Shown here: positions 3,001-6,000 of the stretch, piece by piece
Layout: each line of letters starts with the position of its first letter
Numbering within the stretch: position 1 is the stretch's first letter
Virus record (IMG/VR): IMGVR_UViG_2877251553_000005
Source of the DNA: a virus
Lineage: Duplodnaviria; Heunggongvirae; Uroviricota; Caudoviricetes
Reading direction: 5' to 3' (one strand)
DNA: 52,483 bases
Program-made: the position numbers

Positions 3001-6000
3001 GGTTGTTTGCGCATTGATGCGGAAATGCGCTTCCAGTCTTCGCGATCTTTGTCGATAACTTCATTTTTTGCCCAGCGATGGATGCTGCCGTCAATGTTTC
3101 CGGTATCAATATCGCCAGGCCAGAGAGCGTAGGCCAGTTCTTCATCCAGCGTTTTCCATGTCTGCTTGTATTCGCGACAAATGGCGGCAGTGACTGGGTT
3201 GATTTTTCCTGCTGAGTTTTCAGTGTTCTGTTGATTGACTCTGGCGCTGGCGAGATCAACAACAGACGTGTATTTTCCAGTCTCTTTGCGCTCTGCGTCC
3301 TGCCGTTTTTTCCAGTTACGTAATTCAGCCTGAATTTCGGGCCATTTGGCACCCGGATTACATTTGTGTTTAACCCATCCGATAGCGAACAGTTTGCGTT
3401 CCGGATACATAGCGTTAATTTCAGGCGTTTTCATCAGTGCTTCAACGATATGCCCGTCAAAGGTAGCAACGTCTTCCTGCAGTAATTCCTGCGCGTCAAT
3501 CGCCATATCAACGGTGATGTTTTCACATGTACCGAACTTAACCAGGACCGCGTTCTGTACTTCAAGGGACAGCTTGTCAAAATTGACGTTCATCGGATCG
3601 GATTCTGGTTCGACCGGAATAAAGGAAGCGGATTCCTCATCCCAGCGGTTTTCCTGCATATATTCAGCATCCCAGGAATCGAGGGCAGGGCGGGGTATAC
3701 CGGGTTTATCCTCGCAGACAAGAAATTTATAAGCGCAGTCCTGAGCAGCCGGATAATGTTCCAGGAATTGCCAGTGAAATTTTGCGCGGGCGCGACGTTC
3801 ATCACCGGCTTCAATGGCAGTGGCTACAGCGACGGCACCTTCTTCCTTTATTGCCTGTTCGTCCGGAATGGCGGCGCAAATAAAGACTTTACTCATTTTG
3901 TTTTAACCTCATTACAGATTTCAGGGTGAACGAATCCCTGCCATTGCTGGCATTTTTAATCCGTTGGTATGGCGTTAATATGGCTGGCGGGTTATCCAGC
4001 CGGTATTTCGTTATTCAGGTTCAGCGATACTTTTTTTAACGGGAGGCATTCACCGGGGATTTTTTGTTCGTCCCTTACCTGAATGCAGGATGACTTACTG
4101 TCATAAATTCCGGTAATCACATTTTGTGGCTCACCCGTTATAAGAAAAACGGTCATCACCAGTGCAAATGCTGAAGTCACTGCTGTTCTCCGATAATACC
4201 AAGTTCAAGAAGGGCAATTCTGGAAAGTATGGAATTATCATTGAGAAGATAAGGTTCATATTTTCTCATCTTAATGGCATCTTCCGTAAACTCCCGGTTA
4301 CTGAGCAGAACACCAATATCAAAACAACCGGTAATGACTCCAACTTATTGATAGTGTTTTATGTTCAGATAATGCCCGATGACTTTGTCATGCAGCTCCA
4401 CCGATTTTGAGAACGACAGCGACTTCCGTCCCAGCCGTGCCAGGTGCTGCCTCAGATTCAGGTTATGCCGCTCAATTCGCTGCGTATATCGCTTGCTGAT
4501 TACGTGCAGCTTTCCCTTCAGGCGGGATTCATACAGTGGCCAGCCATCCGTCATCCATATCACCACGTCAAAGGGTGACAGCAAGCTCATAAGACGCCCC
4601 AGCGTCGCCATAGTGCGTTCACCGAATACGTGCGCAACAACCGTCTTCCGGAGCCTGTCATACGCGTAAAACAGCCAGCGCTGGCGCGATTTAGCCCCGA
4701 CGTATCCCCACTGTTCGTCCATTTCCGCGCAGACGATGACGTCACTGCCCGGCTGTATACGCGAGGTTACCGACTGCGGCCTGAGTTTTTTAAGTGACGT
4801 AAAATCGTGTTGAGGCTAACGCCCATAATGCGTGCAGTTGCCCGGCATCCAACGCCATTCATGGCCATATCAATAATTTTCTGGTGCGTACCGGGTTGAG
4901 AAGCGGTGTAAGTGAACTGCAGTTGCCATGTTTTACGGCAGTGAGAGCAGAGATAGCGCTGATGTCCGGCAGTGCTTTTGCCGTTACGCACCACCCCGTC
5001 AGTAGCTGAACAGGAGGGACAGCTGATAGAAACAGAAGCCACTGGAGCACCTCAAAAACACCATCATACACTAAATCAGTAAGTTGGCAGCATCACCAAA
5101 CAACCTTCAGACGTATTAACGTTTGGTAATAACGTTTCCATTATCGCGTCCTCAACAATGAATTTTGTGATGCGGTGCCTGGTGCCTCCAGGTGACGTTA
5201 ACCAGTTAACAATTAACGCCGGATACAGAGAATCCACCCATAACACTGTTTTTGGTTTTAACTGTTCTGCGTGCGCTCAGCCGCATTCACCACATCACAA
5301 AATTCACTTTAAAAAGGGCGGCAGAGCAGTCACGGAGTAAAACTGATACCGCCAAACGTCACCAGAAAATTGATAACAGAGGGCGTTGCAGCGGGGTTGT
5401 CACTTAAGCGTATGGTCAACCTGACAACCCGGTGTCCTCAGCGGGGAAGGAATAACCCCGCCATACTTACCGCCGCGCCATTTCGCGGATTGCCACAACC
5501 GGAAGCGCACGATCGAATTAAATTTAACGACGACCTATACAGAGAGACTAACTTCTCCGGGCGCTTTCGTGTTATGCCCTGACTTTTCAGGGATATATCC
5601 TTTTCAGTAAACTGTCAGTGCCGGATTCTTATCCGTGTCCGGCGCACGCACTCTACCTCACCTGTGAATAAATTAATGATTAATTGATATTTTGTTGTTT
5701 GATTCAACTTTCCCATCGGATGTGTGATGCTTTAAATCACAGGAATTAATACTGCTTGCTGTAAAATGATTTTCAAGGGTTCTATTCGAATCCCTTTCTT
5801 TTTCATTAACAAGCCAAACCCTTATCAATGATGTCCATTAGATCCAGGAAGTATTTTTCATGTAAATCCTGGTTATCAGAGAGCTGCTTCTCTTCGTACA
5901 GCCCGATAAAGGCTCGGCGTACGTTACCGGATATATTGTCGATGGTTTCTTTTTCTACGGTACTCAGGTCAAGAGTCGCCAGTTGAGAGCGAACCACATT

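Follow-up and report, generated by a model that had tools for sequence, protein, structure and literature searches.

The spacer between the gene of DicF, a small RNA (sRNA), and that of the division inhibitor DicB was analysed in a 52,483-nt stretch of Caudoviricetes DNA (IMG/VR record IMGVR_UViG_2877251553_000005; the whole stretch is referred to as the window), together with two structured repeats on the opposite strand with which the spacer shares a motif of roughly 20 nt. This motif very probably consists of a hairpin (P5) and the inner strand of the closing helix (P1) of a homologous folded RNA domain, of which three copies and one degenerate copy are present in the window. The explanation preferred overall, and considered likely, is that the motif is the core of the 5' domain of the STnc100/PasD sRNAs, and that the P1 of the dicB-type copy serves as a substrate of RNase III. 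STnc100 and PasD are reported to be Hfq-dependent sRNAs in lysogens (Zhu, Shabalina & Storz, bioRxiv 2026; Pearl Mizrahi et al. 2021); expression as an RNA of about 200 nt and Hfq dependence have been published for PasD and for the STnc100 copies of enterohaemorrhagic Escherichia coli (EHEC), and according to a recent proposal PasD and STnc100 have a common ancestry.

The motif was read on the minus strand as CACCTGGAGGCACCAGGCACC (5194-5174, in the dicB leader) and on the plus strand as ACCGGGAGGCACCTGGCACC (20486-20505) and ACCGGGAGGCACCCGGCACC (20952-20971). When the window was searched with GGAGGCACCNGGCACC, two mismatches being allowed, exactly these three sites were found; the expectation from 100 dinucleotide shuffles was 0.10 sites per window, and three sites were reached in none of them. 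The three places named in the sequence-only reading, a preceding note made without database searches, were thus confirmed. The ATG that it had placed directly after the motif is present in both repeats (to 20508 and 20974, respectively) and absent from the dicB copy, which reads CACC-GCATCAC; the ATG of dicB is situated 32 nt past the motif and has a GAGG of its own upstream. When viral contigs were scanned for exact occurrences of the motif, at least 120 loci with at least 137 matches were obtained (the loci of the pattern scan are the matches listed, many of which are close relatives), and 136 of the 137 listed matches were located inside the same STnc100-type fold. The motif is therefore not one that is common everywhere, a possibility that the earlier note had raised against itself. 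A chance or compositional likeness of three GC-rich stretches, in favour of which the short length of the match and nothing else can be cited, is regarded as having next to no prospect in view of the shuffles, of this confinement to one fold, and of a similarity that spans the whole domain in searches with covariance models and hidden Markov models.

Both repeats scored above the gathering score of the Rfam family STnc100 (47 bits) and are members of that family by this measure. In the STnc100 consensus the motif appears as a hairpin (P5, CCGGG-AGGCA-CCCGG) of 5 bp whose loop has 5 nt, and which CACCAUGC abuts without a gap; the 5' strand of P1, GCAUGGUG, is found approximately 90 nt upstream of CACCAUGC, P1 being a long-range helix. 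Because the motif is made up of P5 and the 3' strand of P1, the ATG of the repeats is a helix strand as opposed to a conserved start codon; of the five bases in GGAGG, two fall inside the P5 stem. P4 is formed with 8/8 bp in both repeats. In copy 2 the pseudoknot AUCAGCG/UGCUGGU can be drawn (scored on locus L002, the sequence of which is identical over this region), and the fold energy gave a z value of -2.25 (RNAfold). In the degenerate unit between the two copies the closing helix is GUGAUG/CAUCAC, P5 is replaced by CCGG-GAAA-CCGG, and the motif has been lost. The coordinates of all these features are collated in Table 1.

In the dicB copy, P5 reads CCUGG-AGGCA-CCAGG, and the next 4 nt, CACC, open the 3' strand of P1. 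With a permissive Rfam search of 5000-5700, the spacer (5109-5318, minus strand) was aligned to the full STnc100 model (1-206) with 34.4 bits, corresponding to an E-value of 9.6e-6 locally and of 8.2e-4 when the whole window and a 7-kb control locus were searched. Since this score is significant yet below 47 bits, the spacer was filed as a divergent relative or variant and not as a curated member. A family profile, which uses sequence only, was run with nhmmer and retrieved the three window copies with E-values of 7e-21, 7e-19 and 8e-19, and nothing else below 0.3. The dicB spacer, both repeats and a relative from phage P7 were folded separately with RNAfold and gave the same layout of P1, P2, variable arm, P4 and P5; the z value was -2.9 for the dicB domain and -5.1 for the fold of 5368-5128 (minus strand). 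A common evolutionary origin, one of the two explanations offered in the sequence-only reading, is accordingly borne out by the Rfam model, by the nhmmer profile and by an identical fold architecture across all three sites. When the dicB region was searched against Rfam at E up to 10, only DicF, STnc100 and a chance match to ftsZ-DE were returned. The DicF of the window is identical to the K-12 dicF; the spacer of K-12 MG1655 differs from that of the window by three bases and forms the same helix, and in the Qin prophage of K-12 the 174-nt spacer between dicF and dicB carries no annotation. The dicB copy has no terminator, and as a promoter only a weak candidate, GTGACT-16-TAAAGT, was seen by eye, one that the promoter scan did not report.

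Table 1. Positions of DicF, the dicB-type domain, the STnc100 units and their structural elements in the window
Feature	Position	Strand	Basis or remarks
DicF sRNA, 53 nt, with terminator hairpin	5316..5368	-	Rfam RF00039, 76.7 bits (match 5316-5367); T-run 5315-5311
dicB-type STnc100-like domain, filling the DicF-dicB spacer	5157..5308	-	
Extended P1 of dicB-type domain	5308-5288 with 5177-5157	-	21 bp; J1/2 = AAU
P1 5' strand of the 21-bp helix, AGUGAAUUUUGUGAUGUGGUG	5288..5308	-	fold of 5368-5128 (-)
P2 of dicB-type domain	5284-5269	-	
Pseudoknot 5' strand, CAGUUAA	5264-5258	-	variable arm follows
P4 of dicB-type domain	5220-5213 with 5201-5194	-	8/8 bp; loop 5212-5202 holds UUAACUG (5209-5203)
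P5 of dicB-type domain	5192-5178	-	preceded by unpaired A5193
Reported motif, CACCUGGAGGCACCAGGCACC	5174..5194	-	last base of P4, unpaired A, hairpin P5 and first 4 nt of P1 3' strand
dicB start	5097..5141	-	ATG 5141-5139, Shine-Dalgarno sequence GAGG; first 15 codons, then IS1 end at 5097
STnc100 copy 1	20371..20564	+	Rfam RF02076, 140.5 bits
Copy 1 P1	20401-20408 with 20502-20509	+	GCAUGGUG/CACCAUGC
Copy 1 P5	20487-20501	+	central pair G.U
Copy 1 terminator	20536-20555	+	terminator scan
Degenerate STnc100-like unit between the copies	20600..20775	+	Rfam, 30 bits, E 0.011
Terminator of degenerate unit	20749-20768	+	terminator scan
STnc100 copy 2	20840..21028	+	Rfam RF02076, 132.8 bits
Copy 2 P1	20868-20875 with 20968-20975	+	
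Copy 2 P5	20953-20967	+	central pair G-C
Copy 2 terminator	20998-21019	+	terminator scan

The family domain has a length of about 85-150 nt and is composed of P1 (NNNN-GGUG paired with CACC-NNNN), J1/2 (AAU), P2, a variable arm, P4 and P5, the last of which has the form CCNGG-AGGCA-CCNGG and abuts the 3' strand of P1 directly; the GGUG/CACC closing helix, the AAU of J1/2 and the abutting P5 are shared by all three window copies. An exact GGTGAAT box was present 78-112 nt upstream of the motif in 125 of the 137 listed matches, the remaining 12 comprising nine one-base variants of the box, two matches at the end of a locus and one apparent chance match in a coding sequence. The tetranucleotide past CACC was variable among the listed matches (ATGC, ACAA, ACAC, GCAT, GTAG, GCAG and others), and the outer pairs of P1, read without an alignment, were GCAT/ATGC, TTGT/ACAA, GTGT/ACAC, ATGC/GCAT, CTAC/GTAG and CTGC/GCAG. 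As the four bases past CACC complement the four bases before GGTGAAT, P1 is supported and a conserved start codon is disfavoured.

In an alignment of 42 sequences prepared with MAFFT, P1 was paired to 92.9%, with four of its eight pairs changed on both sides, and P5 to 100%, its central pair being GC in 33 sequences, UA in eight (the pair of the dicB type) and GU in one. The covariation score was 0.278 against 0.121 for shuffles, none of 500 of which reached it, and against at most 0.096 for slid partners, the shuffle controls being ones that ignore phylogeny. The G.U pairs fix the transcribed strand, namely the dicB strand for the spacer and the plus strand for the repeats. Because the alignment is not in structural register at P4 and at the pseudoknot, these two elements were scanned free of alignment with cross-sequence controls. 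A perfect P4 of 8 bp was formed in 30 of the 42 sequences from 31 distinct strands (1% in swapped-strand controls), and the pseudoknot, in which the loop of P4 is paired with the segment after P2, had a mean run of 7.0 as compared with 5.0 in the controls. Its pairs differ among members: CAGUUAA/UUAACUG in the dicB type, and CCAGUCA/UGACUGG, CUGGUG/CACCGG, AGACUGACAAA/UUUGUCAGUCU and others elsewhere. In about 300 loci from phages and Enterobacterales, covarying stems are combined with a motif that hardly changes.

The first scan had selected on the motif, and its invariance was therefore retested with independent anchors. With the 5' box GGTGAATCCCCCTNNGCGG as the anchor, all 108 unique listed loci carried ACCGGGAGGCACCCGGCACC with up to two mismatches, 85 of them exactly. 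With DicF as the anchor, a dicB-type element was found right after the DicF terminator in all 107 listed loci, the motif differing by no more than about two bases; CACU, by which a G.U pair is kept, is present in half of these loci, K-12 included. In a scan of one genome per species, 57 loci were obtained across the Enterobacterales, with the same core and different stems, the genera with the domain including Salmonella, Klebsiella, Enterobacter, Citrobacter, Pantoea, Erwinia, Rahnella and Kosakonia. The invariance of the core is most likely due to tertiary folding or to recognition by a conserved partner.

The sequence-only reading had taken GGAGG for a Shine-Dalgarno-like sequence ahead of ATG. 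Read as a working ribosome-binding site, with the ATG as the start of a small protein, it would make the repeats small mRNAs or dual-function RNAs. The spacing is in keeping with this, GGAGG being located 11 nt before ATG in both repeats; a single frame into the terminator-encoded peptide SPSPEG is kept in 11 of 14 unique linkers of the EHEC type, and for some STnc100 copies of strain EDL933 the ribosomal coverage value (footprints per transcript read) exceeds 1.5. These 11 in-frame linkers, however, belong to close relatives, the peptides are unrelated outside the terminator-encoded part, and, since the open reading frames (ORFs) cross the terminator, the terminated RNA would be left without a stop codon. 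An ATG follows CACC in only about 50 of the 137 listed members, the bases at this position covarying as part of P1, and is missing from the dicB, kil and P7 copies and from most copies of the promoter type; GGAGG itself is partly paired, about half of it being buried in P5. With ORFs that are not conserved, translation from this site is considered very unlikely, and this part of the earlier interpretation, which as a whole is partly supported, was given up.

A further possible role of the motif region is that of a pairing target of DicF, either in cis on a read-through RNA or in trans, which would amount to feedback on dicB. Between the DicF 5' seed GGUGACGUU and AACGUCACC (5202-5194) the complementarity is perfect over 9 bp, with three more pairs past one mismatch, and the RNAduplex energy of DicF with the leader was -49.5, as compared with -35.6 +/- 3.8 for shuffles. 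The palindromic ACGT core makes such matches easy, however, and the site is buried in P4/P5. Seed variants (GACA, GACT, GGCG, AACG) occur in 17 of the 107 listed DicF copies and are uncompensated in the leader; a second complementary segment, the loop of P2, varies without a change in DicF, and the complementarity to the two repeats is limited to 7 bp. Pairing with DicF as the role of the region was consequently rated very improbable, slightly below translation from GGAGG.

RNase III requires about two helical turns of duplex and leaves 3' overhangs of 2 nt. In the dicB copy, AGUGAAUUUUGUGAUGUGGUG is paired with CACCGCAUCACAAAAUUCAUU in an uninterrupted helix of 21 bp, which occupies nt 61-81 in DicF numbering. 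This length was found in 92 of the 107 listed DicF-linked copies, as compared with 4-12 bp in 163 other unique members; modules of the kil type keep the long helix with one bulged A. In the window repeats P1 comprises only 8 bp, so that a duplex of RNase III size is not available there. A 72-nt, RNase III-dependent form of DicF is quoted in PMC5069750 and PMC9438474, where Faubladier et al. are cited for it. Calculated from the quoted lengths, nt 72 of DicF corresponds approximately to window position 5297, i.e., to position 12 of the 21 in the helix, and the end may be shifted by up to 9 nt toward 3' or up to 11 nt toward 5' and still fall inside the helix. With somewhat less confidence than is placed in the explanation as a whole, the lengthened P1 of the dicB copy is judged to be probably the RNase III site by which DicF and dicB are separated. 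The RNase target that had been conjectured in the sequence-only reading would then exist in the dicB copy in the form of the closing helix; it applies neither to the repeats nor to the motif itself.

On the basis of the duplex requirement and the overhang rule, the following course of processing is proposed. The 21-bp P1, stacked on P5, would give about two helical turns and act as the substrate; a cut on the 5' strand of P1 would make the 72-nt DicF, and a second cut on the other strand would fall after ...CAUCAC. The domain would thereby be excised as an RNA of about 125 nt, and the dicB mRNA would be left with a leader of about 25 nt, from which a consequence for dicB expression may follow. 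In most members the domain would start 1-2 nt past a sigma-70 start and be followed by a short A/C-rich linker and an intrinsic terminator to form an sRNA of about 200 nt; the spacer is a divergent copy without terminator, embedded in the early-left operon and always travelling with DicF.

The genomic contexts of the family are as follows. In the CCCC type (equivalent to the STnc100 type of Rfam), a terminator is found 20-50 nt past P1. A sigma-70 promoter with at least 9/12 consensus positions was detected in 22 of 72 unique loci, its -10 element ending 7-11 nt before GGTGAAT (in 18 cases at exactly 8), and only three such promoters were placed elsewhere within 140 nt on either side; by this placement, transcription should start 1-2 nt before GGUG. 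Several CCCC-type units are located between a gene of the Q antiterminator (PF06530 or PF06323) and the holin gene, an annotated example being Klebsiella phage ST11-VIM1phi8.2; in lambdoid phages, the gap between Q and holin is the site of a short late leader RNA. The window repeats follow Q (PF03589, 17451-18272) at a distance of about 2 kb, are downstream also of a methylase gene and of tRNA genes, and precede a nanS-p-like esterase gene. In the dicB and GCGG types P2 is different (GCGGCUNAGCGCACGC), a terminator is usually missing, and a gene follows downstream. The dicB type always follows DicF, and about 35 nt further on there is dicB, a gene for a 73-aa Kil-annotated protein (septation inhibitor) or another ORF, the join to the downstream gene being made immediately past the closing helix.

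A close relative of the dicB type is present in the ban operon of P7 and D6, between tRNA genes and tciA (TerB-like), with 43.0 and 39.6 bits, respectively, against STnc100. In P7 (locus L231, 2155-2300 and 2494-2622) and in D6 (L232), the domain before tciA is accompanied by a second, more divergent paralogue, GUUGUGGUGG...CCACCACAAC, with the P5 CCGG-AGAUUCAGUA-CCGG, upstream of a tRNA-Sec-like gene. At two loci of Pantoea (L319 and L328) the first tRNA gene begins about 10 nt past the closing helix, and the domain thus forms the leader of a tRNA cluster. Co-occurrence of the domain with phage tRNA genes was observed in the window, in 933W and in P7. A tRNA-likeness of the element itself was considered and rejected, as neither ARAGORN nor the Rfam tRNA model found anything at the element; only the co-location with tRNA genes remains. 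In 933W (L233, 3489-3748), a full STnc100 unit (207.7 bits) is situated about 75 nt after stxB2, and the Rfam family AsxR was matched on the opposite strand, adjoining the STnc100 terminator.

An explanation that starts from the invariance is that the core is the receptor for a conserved factor and the domain a cis-regulatory leader governing downstream read-through or the expression of dicB, kil or tciA; the factor might be RNA polymerase, the ribosome, an RNase, an RNA-binding protein or a small ligand, and structure and processing would be secondary. As to the identity of the element, this agrees with the preferred explanation; the difference concerns its function. The 20-nt core and GGUGAAU are indeed nearly invariant across the Enterobacterales, with the other helices covarying freely, the pseudoknotted multi-helical fold resembles that of an aptamer, the position is promoter-proximal, and one and the same domain is joined to different platforms (a terminator, a Shine-Dalgarno sequence with a gene, or tRNA genes). 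However, what lies downstream is heterogeneous, an alternative pairing of the domain with terminators or Shine-Dalgarno sequences was not seen in conserved form, and no match to riboswitch, ribozyme, put or C4 models or sequences was obtained. Constitutive antitermination is further disfavoured by the accumulation of the terminated sRNAs in lysogens. A leader of this kind is considered unlikely, if clearly less so than the translational and DicF-pairing explanations above. A terminator/antiterminator switch of the riboswitch type was rejected separately, the similarity between P2 and the terminator being confined to the EHEC subtype.

Several results weigh against the preferred explanation, that of an STnc100/PasD domain with an RNase III-processed P1 in the dicB copy. 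The dicB copy scores below the Rfam gathering score (34.4 against 47 bits), and its P2 is in a different register. The fold energy of copy 1 is unremarkable (z -0.8, RNAfold), and its pseudoknot is poor, with only 4 bp. In a consensus promoter scan of all window copies, no relevant promoter passed, and published footprints on some EHEC STnc100 copies give ribosomal coverage values of up to 3.2. A simple stabilising or processing role would not demand an invariant stretch of 20 nt. As to the processing, a mismatch cuts the uninterrupted helix to 15 bp at nine DicF-linked loci, and the position assigned to RNase III rests on lengths (53 and 72 nt) that are quoted in later papers. According to Ragunathan et al., RNase III acts upstream of DicF (190-nt species), and no transcript spanning ydfABC through dicB and ydfDE was seen.

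The closest known system is STnc100 (RF02076) with PasD1 and PasD2 of enteropathogenic E. coli, to which the two repeats belong as members. The dicB spacer has in common with it the full set of P1, AAU, P2, variable arm, P4 and P5, as well as the core, its location in a prophage and the strand that is transcribed, but the dicB type differs in its GCGGCUNAGCGCACGC P2, in the missing terminator, in a P1 of 21 bp in place of 4-12 bp, and in its position inside an operon, after DicF and with a protein gene next. The late leaders of lambdoid phages (lambda 6S, from pR' to tR', and StxS of Stx phages) are promoter-proximal, constitutive, terminator-ended short RNAs between Q and the lysis genes, and family members in Klebsiella and other phages resemble them; the likeness to the window repeats is loose and positional, those units being placed behind methylase and tRNA genes, and the dicB copy belongs to the early-left operon. 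Helices for RNase III are known from polycistronic RNAs such as the T7 early RNA and the rRNA precursor. The dicB copy is similar to these in that an uninterrupted duplex of about two turns encloses a folded insert and that the published product length fits its centre; it differs in that the helix is a lengthened closing stem of a domain whose other members do not have a helix of RNase III size.

In the c4 - icd - ant operon of P1 and P7, a structured antisense RNA is processed out upstream of a division inhibitor gene. C4 (RF01695) therefore resembles the dicB copy as a structured RNA before a division-inhibitor gene in an operon, but the STnc100-like domain is without repeated complementary a/b boxes, and the P7 copy is in the ban operon, not in immI; as a candidate, the P1 C4 antisense RNA was discarded, since the Rfam C4 model had no match at the element in the window, P7 or D6. 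The put elements of HK022 are likewise cis-encoded structured RNAs right after the promoter, in lambdoid operons possibly without N. They take the shape of a two-hairpin V, as opposed to a closed pseudoknotted junction, and the terminators after the STnc100 units work in lysogens. An antiterminator of the put type was also rejected, as no motif was found within three mismatches in the HK022 immunity region and putR appeared unrelated by eye.

Further observations concern the surroundings of DicF and dicB. The 5' seed of DicF, GUGACGUUU, is complementary to dicB codons 2-5, AAACGUUAU (5130-5138, minus strand), with 9 bp including two G.U pairs in the predicted fold. Upstream of DicF, a segment at about 5375-5500 (minus strand) looks like a worn relative of the domain, with a closing helix GUUGUGGC...GCUGCAAC, an AAU and CCGCG-AAAUGG-CGCGG; a P1-AAU-P2-like arrangement can be drawn, single-base variants keep the pairing, and the published 5' end of the 190-nt DicF would fall a few nt before this segment. 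The candidate that follows from it, a paralogue by which the 190-nt DicF would be a whole STnc100-like unit, was set aside as unproven, nothing being detected there by Rfam or by the nhmmer profile. As read from the sequence and from an alignment to K-12, the window dicB is interrupted after codon 15 by the insertion sequence (IS) IS1 (4330-5097, minus strand), on both sides of which GGTTGTTT(T) is duplicated (4322-4330); the remainder of the DicB-like ORF resumes after the IS. The same overlapping ORF pair (136 aa + 301 aa) is present twice, 10.4 kb apart (13239-14512 and 23606-24879, plus strand), and probably represents two copies of an IS3-family element. Judged from these sequences, IS1 in dicB and the other IS-like ORF pairs suggest a Shigella-type or otherwise heavily IS-laden host.

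Near the repeats, a sequence at 20120-20161 (plus strand) resembles a tRNA-Arg(UCU)-like gene of which only the 5' half is left: acceptor, D arm and the anticodon loop CUUCUAA can be recognised, and the likeness ends in the anticodon stem. It is placed directly after tRNA-Met and tRNA-Arg and was not called by ARAGORN. The nanS-p-like sialate esterase (21634-23504, plus strand) is encoded in two overlapping ORFs (DUF1737+SASA and SASA+DUF6645) with an apparent frameshift. Other Rfam matches, in 14882-15057, 48340-48588 and 50909-52156, were sok (117 bits), a weak isrG, two IS009 and a weak CssrB.

In the literature consulted on STnc100 and PasD, no connection to DicF or dicB is mentioned. The dicB-type element is best regarded as a variant of the family: fold and core are unchanged, but its score falls short of the threshold, it lies within an operon, has no terminator and is tied to DicF and to division-inhibitor genes, and its closing helix has become a duplex of RNase III size. 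The family description is refined by the pseudoknot, by the placement of the start site and by the position as a late leader, of which no description was found and which may already be known. A wider proposal, that the 5' domain of STnc100 belongs to a hitherto unrecognised class of compact, pseudoknotted, factor-binding phage RNAs and is a portable module with which late leaders, tRNA clusters and the leaders of division-inhibitor genes begin in temperate phages of Enterobacterales, is doubtful, though slightly less so than the receptor function considered above; if it were true, a conserved host machine (RNA polymerase, ribosome or RNase) would be recruited by the GGUGAAU...ACCGGGAGGCACCCGGCACC core to control the downstream output, and in the dicBF operon a single regulatory cassette, inherited as a unit, would be made up of DicF, the domain and the inhibitor gene.

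This operon has been studied since the 1980s, and its spacer can now be described as a diverged STnc100/PasD fold, by which the tempting reading of the motif as a ribosome-binding site with ATG is removed. The fold would provide a structural basis for the processing of DicF by RNase III that has been reported, and offers a testable route for uncoupling the toxic dicB from DicF. The leaders of division-inhibitor or TerB-like genes (dicB, kil, tciA) are thereby linked to abundant prophage sRNAs of pathogenic E. coli.

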